Assembly: GCA_951406725.2 (NCBI GenBank)
Contig: OX597820.1
Coordinates: forward strand, 6,510,001 to 6,574,000
Reading direction: 5' to 3'
DNA from: Octopus vulgaris
Taxonomy: Eukaryota
DNA length: 64,000 nt
Part shown: positions 20,885 to 64,000 of the stretch, piece by piece
Numbering within the stretch: position 1 is the stretch's first letter
Layout of the letters: every line of letters begins with the position of its first letter
Translations under genes and position numbers: made by a program
The notes under the pieces: model-generated
Databases searched by the model: none
What the model saw: the letters and a program-made list of their open reading frames with translations, nothing else
What the model was told of the DNA's origin: nothing

Positions 20885-21077
20885 GTGTACCGTTGGCGAT
20901 TTTTTCCCTCCGTCTTCCCTTCCTTGGATCTTTCCTTTTCCTATGTTTCTGATGAAGCGATCCGCTCGAAACGTTAAATCCTCCTTCTTTCTTTTCTTTC
21001 CTGAGCGTCCAATAACGCTACTTGTTCTATGTCCTCGCGTTGTTGTGTTTTCTCTGTGTTTTCATGTTTGGATTAAC

Positions 21078-21080
<3 letters not shown>
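20885..21080 (+). mobile_element. Short HHR-bearing repeat (PLE-terminal-like)
   Basis: Contains the HHR at 20945. Its 3' part matches 57315-57410 (reverse) and resembles 3245-3350 and 59690-59790. Confidence 0.6.
20945..20979 (+). ncRNA. Minimal hammerhead ribozyme
   Basis: gttt CTGATGA agcg atc cgct c GAAAC GTT aaat, with palindromic AACGTT at stem III. Confidence 0.65.
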
Positions 21081-23002: not shown

Positions 23003-23066
<64 letters not shown>

Positions 23067-23084
23067 TGAATTCAATTATCATTG

Positions 23085-24992
23085 TATCTCTAAGAAAGGA
23101 GGCGCTAGCCATCGATTACATCAACATTGAGGAAACAGATGTACCAGCGTCCATACATGAAATGAACTCATGCTCCGCAACTGGCCCTGGTGGATTCCCA
23201 GCTATTCTTCTGAAGTCATGTAAGCAGGCTTTAGCGAAACCACTTCAGATTCTTTTCCTAAATTTCCTTGCAACAGGTAAACTTTCTAAAAAGATAAAAG
23301 AAGGCATGATATGCCCTATTCACAAAGGTGGAATCAGAGCAGAGGCCAAAAACTACAGGCCAATCTCTCTGACTTCACATATCATTAAAGTCATGGAACA
23401 CATCATCAGAAAAAAAGTTGATAATGTTCCTAGAAGAAAATGACCAACTGAACAATACGCAGCGTGGCTTCCGTCCAGGAAGAAGCTACCTCACGCAGCT
23501 CCTAGAGCACCTTGACTGGGTTTTGAAACATCTGCTTTTGAAACAGCAGCTTCACCTATCAGATATCATCGTTAGATACCTGACCTTGCAAAGAGATTTG
23601 GTATGGTAAATCATGGCATGATATGTCATAAGACAGAGACCATTGCTGGTAAACTGGAAGAGTGGCTTCATGATTCCCTTAAAGAGAGAAATCAGGCAAT
23701 TGCAGCCAATGTTAGCCTTTCTGACTAAACTCAAATCCTTAGTGGCGTCCCTCAAGAAACTGTTCTGGGGTCATTATTGTTCATAATGGCTCGTGTAGAC
23801 ATACCCACGGTAACTCGGACAGCCACTGTCACTAGCTATGCCAATAATACAAAATTATCACTGGCAGTAAAATATGAAAACGACGACGTAATCTTACAGA
23901 TTTCGATATACAGATGGACCGGAATAAACAACATGCAGTTTAATGTGGGAAAAGGCGGCGAGCTGGCAGAAACGTTAGCACACCGGGCGAAATGCGGAGC
24001 CGTATTTCGTCTGCCGTTACGTTCTGAGTTCAAATACCGCCTTTCATCCTTTCGGGGTCGATAAATTAAGTACCAGTTACGCACTGCGTTCGATGTACTC
24101 GACTTGATCTCTTTGTCTGTCCTTGTTTGTCCCCTCTATGTTTAGCCCCTTGTGGGTAATAAAGAAATAAATATGGGAACATTTCAAGCACCACTATCAA
24201 CTCGCGAATGCACTACAATCTGCATATACAGGACCCAAAGGCACTATAGTATACAGGACCCAAAGGCACAAGCAGTGAAAGACTTGGGGGATCAGAATGT
24301 GCAATGACGCATCATCTTATATGCACATTACCATGAAGGCAGCAAAAAGCATAGAACTGGTAGAATGCTTACTGAGGTCCTTCAAGACAAGAGACGAAGA
24401 AATAAACTGTGGAGAACCTTTGTTCTCAGCCGCCTAGACTACTATTTCCAGTTATGGTCATCACATAGTGTCAAACTAACAGCGCAGTTCGAAGCATTTC
24501 AACGCCATTACACTAAACGTTTGAAACAGAGCAGCTGATGAGCTACAAATATAGGCTGAGAAATCTGCAACTTTACTCCCTGGACCGAAGGCAAGAGATA
24601 AGCAATAATCTGCGAATGGAAAACTCTAGGTCTAGTACCTAATTTCGCCATTGCCTGTTATACAAATGCCAGAACTGGCCATTGTATTTTACCAAAAGTA
24701 CCATCCACTCCATCTAAATTCAGGACTAAGTACTGCAATTGTCTAGGGATCAAATGCCCAGTTCTTCAATGCCCCTGCCACAAAAAATTAAGAAATCTGC
24801 ATAAGGTGGAACAAGATGTCTGGAAAAAGGAACTAGACGTACTCTTCTCCACAACACCAGGTAAACCAACAGCTGGGACAAAGGCACATACAGGTGTGGG
24901 GGTGTGAAACACATCAGACTGAGGAGATCAGAAAGACAACGGTAATGCACCAGGAGGACTGCAGCCGCGTGGCTGAAACGAGTAAAAGAGTA
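23085..24992 (+). mobile_element. 5'-truncated, decayed CR1-like LINE (RT ORF2 and 3' tail)
   Basis: Motifs GPGGFPAILLK, NYRPISLTSHIIKVME, QRGFRPGRSYLTQLL, SGVPQETVLG, YANNTK and FNVGK. Frameshifted. Tail cagccgcgtggctgaaac. Confidence 0.9.
23952..24169 (+). mobile_element. tRNA-derived SINE, family C, nested in the LINE
   Basis: Head ggcggcgagctggcagaaacgttag...gagttcaaat. Probable TSD aatgtgggaa (23942) / aatatgggaa (24170). Confidence 0.88.
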
Positions 24993-26835: not shown

Positions 26836-28111
26836 AAAACTACGTTCGAAGATACTGTACTTGATATGGGCGGTAGTGCCTTGCCGGTCTATGGCCTACC
26901 TTCAACAAACCGGGAAGGCACAAACACTCTGTCTTCACATTTGCTGCGTGAGACATGTTTTAATGTTGACGAGCTTGCCGAGTACATAGCCGACAATGAG
27001 CCAAAGCTCCCTCCAGAACAGAAGATATTTTTCCTGAACGCTCCTGGGGGCACTGGGAAAACTTTTCTCAACAAATTAATATTGGCTGAGATTAGGCGAA
27101 CACAAGGCATTGCCCTAGCTGTGGCATCATCTGGAATTGCGGCTACTTTGTTGCCAGGCGGCAGGACAGCTCACTCCACTTTCAAGCTTCCGCTTGACTT
27201 AGCGAAGACTGAAACACCAACTTGCAACATCAGTAACAGCTCCGATCAGGCAGAAGTCTTCAGATGATGCAAGCTTATCGTTTGGGATGAATGCACGATG
27301 GCCCACAGAGGTGCTCTTGAGGCACTAGATAGATCTCTGAGAGACATCAAACACTCTTCAGCTCCCATGGGAGGCATAACACTTCTTCTTTCAGGGGACT
27401 TCCGACAAACACTTCCCGTTATTCCCAAAGGGACTAGAACTGATGCAGTAAGTGCGTGTCTTAAGTCATCCACATTGTGGCCACTGGTGAAGACTCTCAA
27501 ACTTCACACCAACATGCGTGCTCATATGCGACGTAATATCACATCAGCAGCATTTTCTCACACCCTCCTTGCACTTGGCGAAGGCAAAATACCAGGGGAT
27601 GAAAATGGTAATATTGCCATCGATTCCATTTGTACCATTGTTAAAACGCCTTCTGACCTCAGAGATGCAGTGTTCCCAGATCTACAAGCTAATTATCCTA
27701 ATATGGATTGGATTGGCCAAAGGGCTATTCTGGCCCCGAGGAATAAAACTGTTCACCATATTAATGATGAAATGCTAAAACTCATTCCTGGAGATGTCTA
27801 TGTATATAAGTCTATCGATACAACTCCTGATCCAGAGGACGTCATCAACTATCCAATAGAGGTACTCAATTCCTTTGAGCCCCCCGGACTACCACCACAC
27901 ATTCTCAAACTTAAAGTTGGTGCCCCTATAATGCTCATTAGAAATTTGGTTCCCCCAAAACAATGCAATGGCACACGTTTGATCGTTAAGTCCTTATCTC
28001 CCACCGTAAACTTATATCAATATTTGCCTGAATAATCATCATAATTCAGTGCAATCATTAACAGTACTTTCAAGCAATTCAGCCCCGAGCATCGCCGGGC
28101 AATTCTGCTAG
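26836..28111 (+). mobile_element. Helitron fragment: PIF1-family helicase remnant plus 3' terminus
   Basis: Helicase motifs followed by hairpin gccccgagcatcgccgggc (28082-28100) and CTAG|T at 28108-28112. Confidence 0.9.
26866..28035 (+). pseudogene. Helitron RepHel PIF1-like SF1 helicase domain, disrupted
   Basis: APGGTGKT, AVASSGIAATLLPGGRTAHS, WDECTM, GDFRQTLPV, LKVGAPIMLIRNL and CNGTRL. One in-frame TGA at 27265 separates the two listed ORFs. Truncated before the final helicase motifs. Confidence 0.92.
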
Positions 28112-31589: not shown

Positions 31590-32362
31590 TAAAAGACTGG
31601 AAATTTGGTATATCCTAAAAGTGGCGAGAAGTCTTTTCTGGAGAGAGTACTATTGGAAATTGAGAAATGTCTGCATCAGTCTCATGAAAAGGAGAGAGCA
31701 AATAAAGAAGCTTGGGTTATAGAAAATATCAAGTCAAACCCTGAAGCTTTCTTTAAGTTTGCCAAAGAAACAGCCTCAATACGCCACATGATAGGACTCC
31801 AAGTCCAGAAGATGGTTTCCTTACAGGAAACCCTATATGGATAAGTGAAATACTGAACGTGCAGATCATTACACCGCTGGGACACGGACAGGCGAACGAA
31901 CCAGCAGAATTATTTACCATTTTACCTGTAATCGAAGAGGCAAAAATTGAGTACATGAACATTGAAGGTGTAACACTCGCCATAGATGAAGTCGACACAA
32001 ACTCAGCTGCTGGCCCCGATAGATATCCAATGATCCTTCTCAAATCATGCAAGCGAGCCCTTGCAAAACCATTGCAGCTTCTTTTTCAGAGCTCCCTTGG
32101 AAGCGGTAAGCTCCCAGACAGACTGAAGGAAGGGATAATATGCCCTTTCTATAATGGAGGAATCAGAGCAGACGCTAAAAATTATAGGTGGAAAACTTGA
32201 AAGAGTGGCTGCATGACTTTCTAAAAGAAAGACGTCAGGCAGTGGTGCCAGTGAAGCCACCTCTACGGAAGCACAAATAGCAAGTGGAGTTCCACTATCT
32301 TGGGGCCACTGCTATTGACAGTGGTCCTCTCAGACAAGCTCTCAGCTGCTCAGATAGCCACA

Positions 32363-42477: not shown

Positions 42478-43280
42478 ACATAATTCCTCATCTCTTAAAT
42501 ATAGAACTGTATTAATTGAGACATCAAAACATTGTCCTCTGTAACATTTTGATTTCGGGAACCTGACCTTATCGTTATTTTCTCATCCATCCTTTAAAGA
42601 GCAAGTATCTGATTTATATAATTATCTAATTATAGAAATATCTGATTTATAGAATCATAGTACTATTAGATCAACCCACTTCGACTTACTGGTATTTAAT
42701 TTTTGGCACTGAGTATCAGACATATTCTCTGTTATTTTCTGAGTTGCGATCAGTGATTCTCTGACAGTAGAGGCTTCTGGGATGTCCTGCCCAGTTTAAC
42801 ACTCTTCATCGCATGACTGCTTTCTTTAATTCGCTGCTTTTCATCCCTTCTGGACTCATCACGTGGTTCTTTTGGTCACTCACAGTAATTCAATTGCATC
42901 CTCTACGACATCCTTCAAATAGCTTTTCTCCTTATAACTAAAATGCAGCACATAAGCAGTGGCGGGGGAGGGTGTGTGGATCAGGAAATATATTTCTTGA
43001 ATTATTCCCTAAGACACCCAATGAAGGCTGGAGAGTATATCAGCCGAAACGTTGAGTTAACAACAAACAAGATGAGGACAAATATTCGTCAAATGTAAAT
43101 AAAGTACATAATTCCTCATCTCTTAAATATAGAACTGTATTAATTGAGACATCAAACATTGTCCTCTGTAACATTTTGATTTCGGGAACCTGACCTTATC
43201 GTTATTCTCTCATCCATCCTTTAAAGAGCAAGTATCTGATTTATATAATTATCTAATTATAGAAATATCTGATTTATAGA
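42478..43280 (+). repeat. 175-bp near-identical direct repeat (42478-42653 and 43106-43280)
   Basis: The two copies differ by one indel and one substitution on visual alignment. Confidence 0.92.
43013..43058 (+). ncRNA. Degenerate minimal hammerhead of the 62.7-63.2 kb family
   Basis: gacac CCAATGA a ggctg...cagcc GAAAC GTT gagtt, with the core mutated. Confidence 0.55.
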
Positions 43281-49103: not shown

Positions 49104-49166
49104 TAGGGTTACCGGAGGTTTCAAATCCATAAAGCGCTTGCATTTACAGCGTTTCTTCAGACCCTA
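49104..49166 (-). ncRNA. Type I hammerhead in the 3' region of a PLE
   Basis: Minus strand: tagggt CTGAAGA aa...tt GAA ACC tcc GGT A acccta. Core and stems I and III intact; stem II weak. Confidence 0.65.
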
Positions 49167-49839: not shown

Positions 49840-50636
49840 TAAAACTTAGAACTTACATAAAACTTAGATATGTTTCGACCAGAGATTGGTCCAGGCCATG
49901 TCTAACTTAATAGCACCACCTGATAGGATTATTCGAATCCTGTTTAAGTCAAGTTTTGTTCAAGTAGTGAGTTCTTGTTGGGTGAGTTGTACCCAGTTTT
50001 GTTCAAGTAGTGAGTTCTTGTTGGGTGAGTTGTATCCAATTATGGGTGGCTTATCTGGTATTCTTTGAAGGAATCTATCCAGACTCTGTTTGAAGTTGAT
50101 GGGATCCTTTTCCTCTTTGATCTCCCCAGGGACAATGTTAAATAGGGCAGGGCCTGTTGAGGAAAAGAAATTATGTTGCAGTGTACGTGTATGTTGTGAT
50201 CTTGAATTTGGCAGGGGACGTAGTGGTCCAAGTCTTGGATGAACCTTGAAGCTAATGTTTAGGTCGTTTGGGCAAAGTTGGCGGTATATTTTCCACATCG
50301 TACAAATGATGTACCGCTCACGGCGACGCTGGAGGGAGTAAAGTTTCAAGGCTTTAAGGCGATCCCAATAATCGAGAGCAGCCATGCTTTCAATTTGTTT
50401 AGTGAGAGCCCTCTGGGGTGACTCAATTCTGGAGATGTTTTGTCTTGTGTGAGGAAACCACAGTGGGCAGCAGTATTCAAGGTGTGGCCGTACAAAGGAG
50501 GAAAAAAGTGGTATGATGACACCTTGTTCTCTGGACCGGAAAGTTCTTAAGATCCAGGAACTCATCCTACGAGCTATATCGACCTTCTTGTTGATGTGTG
50601 CACTCCAACTGAGATCGTCATCAACAATTACACCCA
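49840..50636 (-). mobile_element. CR1-like LINE 3' portion (second family)
   Basis: Open frame GVIVDDDLSWSAHI..VRPHLEYCCPLW..LYSLQRRRERY..GPALFN. A ~41-bp tandem duplication lies near 49952-50034. Confidence 0.92.
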
Positions 50637-50728
50637 TATATATATATATAAGCATGCACCACCGCACACCATATACATGCACACGTATAGAAGCATATTT
50701 ACACAAATACACGCATCCATTTGAATAT

Positions 50729-50771
<43 letters not shown>

Positions 50772-54802: not shown

Positions 54803-55237
54803 AATATTTCTTTATTGCCCACAAGGGGCTAAACATAGAGGGGACAAACAAGGACAGCCAAAAGGATTAAGTCCGTTACATCGACCCCAGTGCGTAACTG
54901 GTACTTAATTTATACGACCCCGAAAGGTTGAAAGGCAAAGTCAACCTCGGCGGAATTTGAACTCAGAACGTAACGGCAGACGAAATACCTATTTCTTTAC
55001 TACCCACAAGGGGCTAAACATAGAGGGGACAAACAAGGACAGACAAAGGGATTAAGTCGATTATATCGACCCCAGTGCGTAACTGGTATTTAATTTATCG
55101 ACCCCGAAAGGATGAAAGGCAAAGTCGACCTCGACGGAATTTGAACTCACAACGTAACGCAGACGTTGTGAGTTCAAATTTCGTTGTGAGCTCAGTTTTT
55201 CGCCCGGCGTGCTAACAGTTCTGCCAGCTCGCCACCT
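54803..55237 (-). mobile_element. Family C SINE with tandemly duplicated 3' body
   Basis: Units at ~54805-54988 and ~54990-55165; head ggtggcgagctggcagaa at 55220-55237. Confidence 0.9.
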
Positions 55238-57276
55238 TATAGCGTTTTATTAATAATGATGCATGTAATGTGCCACTTGTAATGAAGAATGAATGTGTCA
55301 CTATTAATGTGGCGTGACTCACAAATAATGAGGCATGTGTCACTGATATTAAAGTAAGTGGCACAATGAGGGAAGTGTGACAAATGATGAGGTGTGTATC
55401 AAAAGTAAAGATGTGTGTGCCACTCGTAGGGAAGATTGTGTCAATACTAATGTTTGAGATTATGAGGTATTCCACGAATATGTCAATATCATTTCAGCTC
55501 GTAAACTTCATCTTCAGCATGTTGACCCCTGTGTACACACAAAAAGAAATTATCAGGGTGTATAGGGGAGTCAAGACATTTTGCTAATATTATAGACATT
55601 CAATAAGATCAACTTCTCCCAATATATCGTAACATATTTAAGAATAGTTTAACGATGGAAAAGAATAAAACTGTCATAGATAAGACCTGATGTAATAATT
55701 TTGATGGTGATATTACGAATATATTTACTAATTTTTCGTAGAAACTAACAAATATTTAATTTAACGGAAAAATAGAGAGAGCAGGTGGATCATCCGACAG
55801 TCCTATCTCTTACACAGCTTTGGTGAGACGAGTGTCCGAAGAAATATATCAACTACATCGAACATTGATTTAGAATATAAGATATAAAGATCACCAGTTA
55901 TGAAATAAGCCTGAAATCTGGGAGACAGAGCAGAAAGTATTAGCGAAAGTTTCTGGGAAAAACTGGAACAGCTACAACTAAATAGAACCTTCGTCTCAGC
56001 CATATCTAAACAAAACCAGATAAGCACCTTGGTTCAGTTGAAAGGCTAGGTTCGGTGTCTGAAAACTGTTTTATGGGGCAAAAACGCAAATACAGGAAAC
56101 CGAACCATATGGTATAGGTGAGGAGAGAACACTTACTCAAACGGAGGCGGGAAACATATGCACTTAACAAGTACATATATTTTCCCTTGTTCAGTTAGTT
56201 TTTCACGCATTGGCATGTCACTATATGCGTACATACTTAGATACATACACACGTACAAACATACTTAGGTACATACATGCATTCATACAAATGTACATAC
56301 TTATATGCACATACATATATAGATGTAAATTTATAAATATATATATGTATATATATATATAAATGTATATATATCATATATAATTGCATGTATGCATAAA
56401 TATATACGTGGATACATATACACATATACATACGACCATATATGCACTTATACACGCACACATATGTAGATTTATATACCTATATATGCTGCCGCGCGCG
56501 CGCGTGCGTGTGTGTGTGTGTGTATCTCCGTTAATGTGCTTAGATGTGTAAGTGTAATTTTTCGTCATGCAAACGCTTTTCTTTTCATCACAACGGTTAA
56601 ATCCATCAACTTAGCAAGAACCTAATAGCCTTAGAGAATAAGCAGATATTTCAAAGGTACTTTGAGACAATTTATAAAAAACACTTGAGAATTAAAATAA
56701 TAAAACAGAATAACCAAAGTGTCGGGAAGTAGAAGAAGAGTGGAATTGATTTCGAGCGCGACTAAAGAACGAAACGTTGGAAGATCAAACGGAAATAATC
56801 GAGGTGGCCGACAGGTTCAAAATTCTCCAGAAGATCAAATAGTTTGTTTATACATTAAATTGACATGCTTAAAGTTGAAAATAACTACGAAAATAAGCAA
56901 ATAAGAGAGAAAACAACAAACACAAAGAAAATAAGAAAGAGAAGGAAGTTGTGTCTCGTGGTTTAAAAAAAAAATTTCATAATTGTATCTAATTTTCAGC
57001 AGGTTTTGTGAAATTGGGTTAAGGACCAGGTTTGAGAAATATGACGAAAGGTTTTTACGTTCCATTATACAACGTAACAATACCAAATAAAATATTGAAT
57101 AGTTTTGTGAGTCTGTAAATAATGTGAGATTCATTTGTGATATGCTTGCTTTAAATCTGGCTTCATTCGATATCAGCAAAGCAATTGTTAAGCCGTAAGA
57201 GTTATGTCCCTTGACCTTTATACTAATAACTCTGATCAAGTTAGACATAAATATGAACACACGCACGGATACACAA

Positions 57277-57316
<40 letters not shown>

Positions 57317-57436
57317 TAGTGAATCCAAACAAAGAAGAACAAACTAGAAAAACAATAATGTGAGGACGTGGTACAAGTATTGTATTATCAGATGCTCAGG
57401 AAAGGAGCATTTATATATATATAATATATATAATTC

Positions 57437-57660
57437 TTCTAACGGTTTTTTTAAAAAAACACTCATTATCGCTTTGTTTACCATGTAGGCAGTCATCGAA
57501 ATTTTTGTTTGTCTTGTTGTCGAGAGAGGCTCCCTTTCTTTCCTGATGAGAAGATTGCATAATGCACCCTTTATTCCTTTGGAATGAAAAAATGTCTTCG
57601 AAACTTATGTCGAGAGTAAAGGAATTTTAACATCTTCGTTCGACTCCATTCTTTCATTTA
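57437..57660 (+). mobile_element. HHR-bearing short repeat, copy 1
   Basis: Collinear with 58122-58355 (aaacactcattatcgct...ttctttcattta). Confidence 0.8.
57538..57616 (+). ncRNA. Type I hammerhead ribozyme
   Basis: ctttc CTGATGA gaagat...gtcttc GAAAC ttat GTC gagag. Canonical core; predicted cleavage after 57611. Confidence 0.85.
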
Positions 57661-58121
57661 TATATATATATATATACATACACGTGCGTGTGTGTGTGTA
57701 ACCCATTTTCACTTCGAATTTTGCGGTAAACTGGCGTTGCTACCAAAGTTGGTAGAGAAACATTTGTAACTGATCGTTAAAGATATGTTAAAGAATTTCG
57801 TTGTCTTCTCATTTGGATAGCACTTTACTCTTCACTAATCCCGTACAACGGTTTCACACTAGGGAGTCCAAGAAGAATTTCGGTATTAGTCTGGAATTCG
57901 ACAGGATTGATAGCCCAGAACTCGGGTTGAGTGCTTCAATGGAAACACGGTTTCTTTATACCCTACCAAAACCTTATACATCCCACAATCATGCACACAC
58001 ATACACACACATAGACACGAATGCAGTTATATACATACACACACATAGGCACTCAATCTCATTAGCAATAGCAAACAACCTTCTAGAATCTTCTACATTC
58101 AACCATTTTTGACGTCACTGC

Positions 58122-58349
58122 TTATAACGGAATATTTTAAATAAACACTCATTATCGCTATGGACTCCGAGTGGGCAGTCATCTAAGAGTTTTTGTTCAT
58201 CTTGATGCTGACATAAGTTCCTTGTCTCTCCTGATGAGAAGGCAGCCTAATGCACCCCTTATTCCTTCGAAATTAGGAATATGCAGCCTTTGAAACATAT
58301 GTCGAGAATAAAGGAATATTGTTAAATCGTCGTTCAACTCAATTCTTTC

Positions 58350-58355
<6 letters not shown>
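58122..58355 (+). mobile_element. HHR-bearing short repeat, copy 2
   Basis: Collinear with 57437-57660 and followed by (TA)n. Confidence 0.8.
58227..58307 (+). ncRNA. Type I hammerhead ribozyme
   Basis: tctc CTGATGA gaaggc...gccttt GAAAC atat GTC gaga. Palindromic ACATATGT; predicted cleavage after 58303. Confidence 0.87.
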
Positions 58356-58381
<26 letters not shown>

Positions 58382-59117
58382 GCAATTTCCTACACAGCTG
58401 TAAGACAACGTTAAAGTAGCTGTATCTAAGTTATCCCAAATCAATTAGCTTCCCTGCGTACATAGAATTTCAATTAGTTTTGTGAAATAGGTAAAAATTT
58501 TCCTTAAACACATATCGCCAACTTTTGCAGAAACATTATCTATATTACTGGAGATAAAAATCACTGAACGCCTCGTGAGGCGCTTTGCGATTTTGTAGAT
58601 AATTGTTGGTGAGGAACAATTATCTATCTTTTTATTATTTAATTGAGAATCATGATGCATCAGGATAAACTATTTATGGTACATTTTTTATTGTGACGCT
58701 CCTTTCAAATTCCTCTCTCACATTTAGCGAACAAGCAGCGATCGATCGGCAAGAAATATTCATGTCGCTCATCTGGAAGTCAATGTTAAGATATAAAGCA
58801 TGACCTCATTACAGGAAGAATCGCAGCGTTTCTGACCTTTTGTTTGACCCCATGACCGTTTTAGAGGGAAAAGAGCAATAAATAATGACTCACTCTTCAC
58901 TGGTTTAGCAAATAGTGTGTCTATATATAAGTTTGAGACCTGCAGTTTTGATATTTGTACGTACAGTATTTGTATACATGTACATGTGTGTGTGTGTGAC
59001 TAAATACACACGCACACATACGTACGAACGCCCGTATATAATATGTGTGTGCATGTATATATATATAAAAGAGAAAGTACTATAACAATAATATGTGTGT
59101 GTGTAGTTGCATGTATG

Positions 59118-59148
<31 letters not shown>

Positions 59149-59306
59149 ATATATATATGTATGTGGCTAACCCCTAAGGGTGGATGCTACTGTAGCTTGT
59201 AGCCCCGGGAGAACATCTCCTGCTGACTATTGACACACTTTCTGTGACCTATCGGTATTTGCACATTGTCGTGCAGTTACTGTTATACCTCGTTCAGAGA
59301 CTTACT

Positions 59307-61544: not shown

Positions 61545-61670
61545 GTATTTATCTCTACAGTAATACAATAGTTGTAATTTATTTCTACAGTAATATGATA
61601 ATTGTAATTCATTTCTACAGTAATATGATAATTAAAATTTAGTTCTACAGTAATATGATAGTTAGAATTT
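61545..61670. repeat. 30-bp minisatellite, about 4 units
   Basis: tctacagtaata recurs at 61554, 61584, 61614 and 61644. Confidence 0.85.
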
Positions 61671-62741: not shown

Positions 62742-63051
62742 AACAGTTCTATATCTAAGAATTGAGGAATTGTGTTCATTATTTACATTTGACGGGTATT
62801 TGTGCTTATCTTGTTTGTTGTTAACACAGCGTTTCGGCTGATAAACCCTCCAGCCTTCATCATTAACTAAACGAATGACTTGAATTAGAAGGAAATGTAT
62901 ACGTTATTCACATTTGACGTATATTTATCCTCATCTTGTTTCTTTTTAACAACGTTTAGGCTGATATACCCTCCCGCCTTCATCAGGTGTCTTGGGGAAA
63001 TTTCGAACCTGGATTCTCATTCCTAAGGTATTTTTCGATGATATTATTATC

Positions 63052-63082
<31 letters not shown>

Positions 63083-63230
63083 TCACTGCTTGGAACTGAA
63101 CTCGGATTCTTGGGATTAATAGCCCGCGCTCTTAACCACTATGCCATATGCCAGTGGGCAACCGAAAAGTTGTGTTAACAACAAACAAAATGAGGACAAA
63201 CATTCGTCAAATGTAAATAATGTAAATAAG
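62742..63230 (-). mobile_element. tRNA-headed SINE-like element carrying two tandem hammerhead units and an inverted terminal fragment
   Basis: Minus strand: A box tggcatagtgg (63136-63146), B-like gttcagttcc (63092-63101), (AAT)n, then HHR units at 62948-62991 and 62823-62862. A plus-strand partial copy lies at 63162-63229. Confidence 0.75.
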
Positions 63231-63597: not shown

Positions 63598-64000
63598 ATA
63601 TTTATTACGCATTTATACCGAGCAAAGGTGAATATTCTCATGTACAAATGTCTTCCATCTTTAAATGTAAACTTTGGTAAACTTCTTCTGTATATAGGTC
63701 ACATTTCTGAGAGTGCAACTGCACCAATTTTCAAGAAGAGACTAGCTAATCACTTAAGTTCATTTCGAGATAAAAATAAACGATTCCAAACAAGTGTGCG
63801 TAAACTAATGTGGTCCATTGAAGACAGAAACAAAGACAGTACAATCAATTCGGAATTAATTAGTGCTGCAAAACCACACAGAGTTGGAACTAATAAATGT
63901 GACCTGTCTTTAAAAGAATTTTACTTAATGTTTACATCTAAGGGCAATATAAGGAATTCTAAACAGAAACAAGCTTTAAGATGCTTGCACATGAGAAAAT
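63598..64000 (+). pseudogene. Penelope-like GIY-YIG endonuclease domain (frame open to the window edge)
   Basis: NILMYKC..LLYIG..FKKRLANHLSSFRDKNKRFQTSVRKLMWSIED..AKPHRVGTNKCDLSLKE..NSK..CLHMRK. Stops immediately upstream. Confidence 0.85.

Follow-up and report, generated by a model that had tools for sequence, protein, structure and literature searches.

Two hammerhead motifs on the same strand of Octopus vulgaris DNA, with predicted cuts 692 nt apart, are best explained as two old insertions that occurred independently, each being a 5'-truncated pseudo-LTR fragment from the end of an element of a high-copy Penelope-like family with a preference for (TA)n microsatellites, a reading to which we attach a probability of roughly three in four. 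Both lie in the window, i.e. the whole 64-kb stretch of contig OX597820.1 that was analysed, to which all positions refer. A previous sequence-only reading had left equal room for two independent insertions and for an LTR-type retrozyme releasing a 692-nt circle. The former is favoured by the different 5' ends of the two copies, the (TA)n run that each of them possesses, the abundance of the repeat and the existence of spacer relatives that lack it. The latter loses most of its appeal, the hammerheads being type I, PBS and PPT missing, the spacer not travelling with the repeats and the circle folding like shuffled sequences.

The scenario that we favour runs as follows. Tandem transcripts of the parent element would allow the ribozyme to act as a dimer, held together by pairing of its palindromic helix III strands, and selection on the parent lineages would have maintained the core and produced a compensated pair in stem II. 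Each copy would have been generated by target-primed reverse transcription that started near the 3' end and stopped early, after which both would have decayed neutrally. The 692-nt spacing would be a by-product of copy number and common target preference, and read-through transcription could in principle lead to a weak double cleavage, albeit an accidental one. If 10,000 copies in 2.5 Gb are assumed, chance alone should place about 14 pairs of copies on the same strand and no more than 700 nt apart (2-139 over nine settings).

Two type I hammerhead motifs and their folds

A strict hammerhead descriptor found two matches in the 64-kb window and none in any of 100 dinucleotide shuffles, and a relaxed minimal descriptor applied to the window recovered the same two motifs and no others. 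A looser pass additionally proposed another fold for copy 2 as well as a weak motif at 49160 with a 2-bp stem II, both of which were dropped. Rfam reported no hammerhead at its gathering score over the window, nor at E <= 10 over 56500-59300. Pattern scans for the motif gave no match in metagenome, viral and prokaryote genome contigs. Both motifs are on the forward strand and display the C3-A9, G12-A15, U16 and H17 core, three helices and an open stem I, which makes them type I. The CTGATGA boxes are found at 57543-57549 (motif 1) and 58231-58237 (motif 2), and GAAA at 57600 and 58292, followed by GTC with predicted cuts after 57611 and 58303, respectively. The two copies thus do keep a complete core and GUC site despite their divergence, as had been claimed.

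Descriptor, folding and alignment define motif 1 (57532..57625, +) and motif 2 (58217..58317, +). In the former, stem I (57538-57542/57612-57616, with a distal extension), stem II (57550-57555/57594-57599) and helix III (57603-57610, ACTTATGT) are all on the forward strand, as are their counterparts in the latter: stem I (58227-58230/58304-58307, distal part 58217-58223/58311-58317), stem II (58238-58243/58286-58291) and helix III (58295-58302, ACATATGT). Proximal stem I is thus 5 bp long in copy 1 and 4 bp in copy 2, and is lengthened distally in both by an AAGGAAT stretch that pairs with the 5' strand. Stem II consists of 6 bp that begin immediately after A9, without an extra unpaired base before G10.1, and it is closed by a loop II of 38 nt (copy 1) or 42 nt (copy 2) that holds an internal hairpin. 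The first pair of stem II is G10.1-U11.1 in copy 2, and G10.1-C11.1 in copy 1 and the family majority. Helix III is only 2-3 bp long in both copies; together with its loop it makes up a palindrome that is perfect (ACATATGT) in copy 2 and the family majority, and that is interrupted at 57605 in copy 1. The earlier label of 'canonical' hammerheads is overstated in view of helix III, the size of loop II and the G10.1-U11.1 pair. The cores had been read correctly, but the short palindrome of helix III, a hint of Penelope hammerheads of the dimer type, had been missed.

These features can be compared with published type I hammerheads of metazoan Penelope pseudo-LTRs (Cervera and de la Pena 2014, PMC4209133; PMC6765202). 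Common traits are a proximal helix I of 4-5 bp, a helix II of 6 bp, a palindromic helix III of 2-3 bp that suits a dimer, the G10.1-C11.1 pair seen in copy 1 and the family majority, and an occurrence in large numbers, mostly as dispersed single copies of which the majority have no ORF. However, the extra base between A9 and G10.1 that is described for minimal Penelope hammerheads (PMC4209133) is missing here, loop II (38-42 nt) is unusually long and more structured than in the published minimal forms, and stem I has a distal extension. Repeat-type and Penelope hammerheads are reported to need a second copy in order to fold as a dimer, and to cleave poorly in vitro (PMC4209133, PMC6765202).

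Folding predictions for the octopus motifs give +1.8 and +2.4 kcal/mol for helix III as a monomer hairpin, -7.0 for the copy 2 homodimer and -3.0 for the heterodimer. Between the copies, predicted helices amount to -3.0 kcal/mol for helix III and to -16.2 and -5.2 for stem I. Copy 1 is predicted to misfold, with a probability of at most 0.38 for the first stem I pair over six contexts (below 0.1 in five of them); the corresponding value for copy 2 is 0.31-0.40. The cut-site sequence of copy 1, and of that copy only, is preceded by an exact 9-mer duplicate at 57518-57526 (+), upstream of the core, and it is this duplicate that captures the core in the predicted folds. A type III reading of copy 1 by way of the same duplicate was discarded, since by inspection it offers a stem III of only 2 bp and is missing from copy 2.

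A pseudoknot involving loop II had also been proposed, and the complementarity is as stated: ATTCCTT (57573 and 58261) can pair with AAGGAAT (57619 and 58311) in a 7-bp helix predicted at -5.6 kcal/mol. However, the 7-mers are identical in the two copies and hence show no covariation, and in predicted folds both arms are already occupied. In local folds, ATTCCTT is engaged inside loop II itself with a probability of 0.95-0.97 (five bases, copy 1) or 0.98-0.99 (six bases, copy 2), and AAGGAAT is bound to the 5' strand of stem I (0.88-0.92 for four bases of copy 1 and 0.74-0.97 for copy 2). To gain -5.6 kcal/mol, the pseudoknot would have to open the hairpin in loop II, worth -5.1 and -6.8 in the two copies, as well as the distal part of stem I, for which subtraction gives about -7 and -10. 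A complement of at least 7 nt arose by chance in 360 of 5000 composition shuffles. Although the folding programs used do not model pseudoknots directly, the energies predicted in this way disfavour the pseudoknot, which would be outcompeted by local pairings. Pseudoknots between stem I and stem II are common in other hammerheads (about 40% of representatives; PMC3088659), where they are a known means of keeping the two stems together (Perreault et al. 2011, PMC3088659). The octopus motifs likewise have a loop that is complementary to a strand next to the other stem, but they differ from those hammerheads in the stronger predicted local partners of both arms and in the lack of covariation. The words TTCCTT and AGGAAT are both present in loop II as well as in distal stem I. 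The family hammerhead might consequently swap partners between the two and act as a switchable pseudoknot that cleaves efficiently, so that chance same-strand neighbours would yield accidental circular RNAs from unrelated spacers, but we regard this as very unlikely.

Divergence and ends of the two copies

Copies 1 and 2 are identical in 177 of 233 aligned columns (76%; K2P 0.24), or in 77.6% of 254 columns according to blastn. Identity is 74% in the 5' arm, 7/7 in the first core box and 11/12 in the stretch from GAAA to GTC, and the probability of finding all thirteen core bases unchanged given a background of 74% is about 0.02. The covariation previously claimed for stem II is real for one of its six pairs, A57554-U57595 in copy 1 versus G58242-C58287 in copy 2, which is the sole two-sided change; three of the others are invariant and the remaining two have one-sided changes that result in wobbles. 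Since both forms of the compensated pair are present in other family members (among contig loose ends and majority letters), sequence comparison suggests that the two copies likely derive from different parent lineages. Each of them also has a ribozyme change of its own. At T57605 of copy 1, contigs from the public runs described below read A (9825 of 10192 depth units in run X1 and all units in X7, X9 and X12), and at T58291 of copy 2 they read C (465245 of 478978 in X1). The majority letters restore the palindrome at the former position and the G10.1-C11.1 pair at the latter, so that each copy bears a private loss. Conservation of the core would, in keeping with these patterns, reflect selection on the parent elements, the copies having since decayed in place.

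A frame opens at an ATG inside the ribozyme core and extends to the (TA)n end (57546-57658, +), with one stop in copy 1, and its counterpart in copy 2 (58234-58353, +) uses the same words but is broken by two frameshifts. An overlap between hammerhead and ORF start is known from the anole Poseidon element, where cleavage depends on protein and insertion in vitro does not require the ribozyme (PMC11167929). By analogy, the frame seen here could be the start of a parent ORF, which we mention as a lead only.

Copy 1 (57436..57658, +, about 225 nt), as delimited by blastn, alignment and a deep contig pile-up, and copy 2 (58077..58353, +, about 280 nt), as delimited by contig loose ends and by pieces starting at 58077, are the only copies of the family in the window. 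They have a common 3' end but different 5' ends, that of copy 2 (about 58077) being 44 nt further upstream than that of copy 1 (about 57436). Copy 1 is followed immediately by a (TA)n/(CA)/(GT)n microsatellite (57659..57699), at the place that a PBS would have in an LTR element, and copy 2 ends on its own (TA)n (58354..58381), the first (TA)4 being 48 and 54 nt past the respective cuts. In a window so rich in microsatellites, these (TA)n insertion sites are not diagnostic alone. With regard to target-site duplications, both outer ends of the unit formed by copies 1 and 2 are within TA-rich runs, and with regard to an optional tail of 30-40 bp, the copies stop at the same place, a comparison of two copies only. 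The spacer consists in bulk of a fragment of an unrelated lower-copy repeat (57705..57978, identified by its depth and by relatives elsewhere) and further contains a CA/TA-rich microsatellite (57984..58047). Copy 2 starts at about 58077, inside what had been assigned to the spacer.

A single partial-tandem insertion or a local duplication, with a spacer that arose afterwards through microsatellite expansion and the arrival of another repeat, would account for the shared strand, the 692-nt period and the presence of only two family copies in 64 kb, and partial tandems are indeed typical of Penelope-like elements (10.1101/2021.04.23.441226). We consider this decidedly unlikely, in view of a compensated change on both sides of a stem II pair, each form of which has other representatives in the family, of a K2P of 0.24 and of the (TA)n end that each copy has to itself. 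As for independent Penelope-like end pieces, 5' truncation, hammerheads in pseudo-LTRs and a bias towards microsatellites and (TA)n are all typical of such elements according to the same source.

Further observations were made in the immediate surroundings. On the reverse strand next to copy 1 (57318..57404) is a tail fragment of a different minimal-hammerhead family (76% identity to 20996-21078, E 1.6e-8), which has raised depth and which makes the site a nest of such insertions. The single-copy flank contains a possible short exon (57001-57075, +), recognized by eye from an AG-rich acceptor before it, a GT after it and one open frame. Pfam provided no support for this exon; if it were real, the repeats would be intronic and in sense orientation. 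In the 5' extension of copy 2, a TGACGTCA box is followed by a TATA-like word (58110-58128, +), and there is no other such box in the window. Together they are a possible internal promoter.

These two words would fit a stand-alone SINE-like unit, or solo non-LTR-retrozyme unit, that has its own promoter and hammerhead and exploits Penelope or LINE enzymes in trans, the two copies still being independent. High abundance, short size and the lack of an attached ORF are in line with such a unit, and solo retrozyme monomers from Penelope pseudo-LTRs have been described in vertebrates (10.64898/2026.07.22.740005). However, the 5' ends of the two copies differ and other members run upstream of 58077, no head-to-tail joint is among those listed and no tRNA gene was called within the window, which is why we deem this explanation unlikely, if not without merit.

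Animal non-LTR retrozymes in general are head-to-tail units of 150-450 bp for which an origin from Penelope pseudo-LTRs has been proposed (PMC7229834). The octopus repeats share with them type I hammerheads, low GC, a non-coding nature, the lack of PBS and PPT and the proposed Penelope origin (Cervera and de la Pena 2020, PMC7229834; 10.64898/2026.07.22.740005). Those retrozymes, however, are in tandem and are expressed as circles, whereas here about 420-460 nt of unrelated DNA separate two diverged copies that each end on (TA)n. Of nine frog dimers tested, eight showed no cleavage (Li et al. 2026, 10.64898/2026.07.22.740005).

Repeat and spacer in public sequence runs

Contigs from four of 24 listed public runs (X1, X7, X9 and X12; 7119 contigs) were placed on 56900-58900 at 80% likeness. 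X1, X7 and X9 are DNA-like, and X12 is only guessed to be RNA. The depth of the unique flanks is flat in the DNA-like runs (42-51 in X1, 39-47 in X7 and 7-8 in X9). Summed contig depth, which is not a copy number and conveys an order of magnitude only, exceeds that of the unique flanks by 6,500- to 14,900-fold in the peak hammerhead bins of these three runs and by 32- to 78-fold in the spacer bins, the ratio of repeat to spacer being about 190 in each run. The hammerhead repeat is thus present in great abundance, well above that of the spacer. Over homologous bins, depth climbs from 5' to 3' (311k, 551k and 733k in X1), as predicted by 5' truncation, although greater divergence among subfamilies upstream could produce the same gradient. 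At 58077, all four runs have loose ends (5-9 contigs each), the upstream continuation of which has no counterpart in the window. X12 covers 16 of 30 bins, all of them on repeats and none on unique flanks, which speaks neither for nor against expression.

Whether the spacer accompanies the repeats at other loci, a check that the sequence-only reading had proposed, can be judged from the same contigs, of which 32 of 7203 pieces are listed. Among these, spacer-like pieces (about 80-85% identical) were found in contigs of 1179 and 4329 nt in X1 and of 363, 438 and 516 nt in X9, the remainder of which is not on the repeats; among the matches listed, these spacer relatives continue into other DNA. 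Neither the 14 joints nor the six short-insert joints listed connect 57705-57978 to a hammerhead copy, although contigs break at microsatellites and rare loci that combine spacer and repeats may have escaped. Together with the abundance gap of about 190-fold, these relatives without repeats speak against a spacer that travels with them. Several spacer pieces start at 57705 or stop near 57975, which argues for a separate repeat of about 275 nt. This medium-copy repeat (57705-57978) has relatives that diverge mid-way (about 57808-57871), and none of its six frames has a match in Pfam.

The idea that the 920-nt unit is one LTR-like retrozyme, which self-cleaves twice into a 692-nt circle, is retrotransposed whole and owes faster cleavage to the pseudoknot, is largely refuted by the spacer relatives without repeats, and we hold it to be highly improbable. 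Its geometry and size are like those in Jatropha, where 697-776 nt separate the cuts (PMC4918200), both cores are intact and the helices predicted between the copies would allow a double hammerhead to form. Plant LTR retrozymes, which also consist of two hammerhead-containing direct repeats about 700 nt apart with a non-coding middle (Cervera et al. 2016, PMC4918200), have LTRs of 300-400 bp, a PBS, a PPT and 4-bp duplications, and their internal region travels with the LTRs, which is not seen here. Moreover, LTR retrozymes carry type III hammerheads (PMC4918200, PMC7229834), whereas those of the octopus are type I. The 25 nt that follow copy 1 contain no TGG that could belong to a PBS. Ahead of copy 2, whichever candidate start is taken, the longest purine run over 30 nt is 2-3 nt, far from a PPT, and the two copies are not co-terminal. 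The spacer is pieced together from microsatellites and an unrelated repeat, the latter about 190-fold scarcer than the hammerhead repeat. According to folding predictions, copy 1 would misfold, and the 692-nt circle reaches -145.3 kcal/mol compared with -136.6 +/- 6.6 for shuffles (z -1.33; 3 of 40 as good).

Joints between copies were sought in the 7119 contigs. No head-to-tail joint from the 3' end of a copy to a 5' start is among those listed. A joint from 58303 to 57612 is likewise absent from those listed, but this is uninformative as a check for a circle because ordinary family members resemble copy 2 upstream and copy 1 downstream. Switches from copy 2 to copy 1 (58290 to 57606 and 58296 to 57608) do occur in X7, a DNA-like run. 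When the orthologous place was considered in organisms B and C, contigs on the flanks were seen to end at the repeats.

Neighbouring elements and significance of the family

No reverse transcriptase or GIY-YIG domain is attached to the independent end pieces that we propose, as none of 18 read-through frames over the spacer and both flanks (and none of 21 in all) matched Pfam. The nearest candidate is a decayed GIY-YIG-type endonuclease domain (63598-63999, +) that lies 5.2 kb from the hammerhead pair, runs past the end of the window and has no Pfam match of its own. It matches 506 proteins at E <= 0.001, three of 20 that were scanned having a weak GIY-YIG below the curated cut-off, and the longer of six relatives listed combine an RT-like YRDD motif, a cysteine linker and a C-terminal YIG domain. 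As this order of domains is of the Penelope type (10.1101/2021.04.23.441226), such elements occur in this genome, which does not imply a link to the hammerhead family. A search for homologues of the remnant among longer proteins yielded none in 112 candidates.

Two other families resembling minimal hammerheads were noticed. The second family is represented by a motif at 20949-21080 (+) with an intact first core box, GAAACGT and a stem II that looks decayed; its tail ends at (TACA)n and recurs (20996-21078) at 57318-57404 (-). The third family (62750-63230 and 43005-43131) has a motif at 62986 (-) with one core change, and shows partial tandem copies, an inverted piece (63159-63230) and a further copy at 43005-43131, an arrangement like that of inverted-plus-tandem Penelope insertions.

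The remainder of the window is rich in microsatellites, with about 26-44% GC per 2 kb, and contains remnants of reverse transcriptase and Pif1 helicase, in line with a repeat-rich genome of animal type, and its repeats resemble those of octopus genomes. Among 34 ORFs compared with Pfam, only the Pif1 helicase remnant (26836-28035, +; E 1e-31), which is probably Helitron-derived, passed the curated cut-off. LINE-like reverse transcriptase remnants were recognized by eye at 23006-23443 (+), 31757-32200 (+) and 49960-50730 (-), with a sub-threshold RVT_1 match for the first only. A pair of 185-nt SINE-like direct repeats with 93% identity (54805-55159) and a 30-nt minisatellite in three copies (61547-61666) were also found, the output of a generic repeat finder being dominated by microsatellites. 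A sigma-70 scan gave four matches versus 4.2 expected by chance, for a bacterial motif that is irrelevant to an animal host.

The hammerhead family is not described in the literature on hammerheads with Penelope, octopus or cephalopods, as represented by main texts and few subscription papers, although it may already be annotated in supplements or repeat libraries. The giant squid genome has 235 Rfam hammerhead hits (PMC6962438), and an octopus repeat annotation lists Penelope-like families, with ribozymes unmentioned in its main text (PMC13282606).

In the ordinary case, therefore, this would be another family of Penelope hammerheads of the dimer type, with a longer and more structured loop II, in an arrangement known from many animals. 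It nevertheless adds a predicted ribozyme family that is unannotated, invisible to Rfam and very abundant in the lineage of its host, and it illustrates that two hammerheads falling by chance on the same strand, with about 700 nt between them, can pass for an LTR retrozyme. Should the strand-swapping pseudoknot or the accidental circles turn out to be true, neighbouring Penelope end pieces would represent a route by which new retrozymes emerge.
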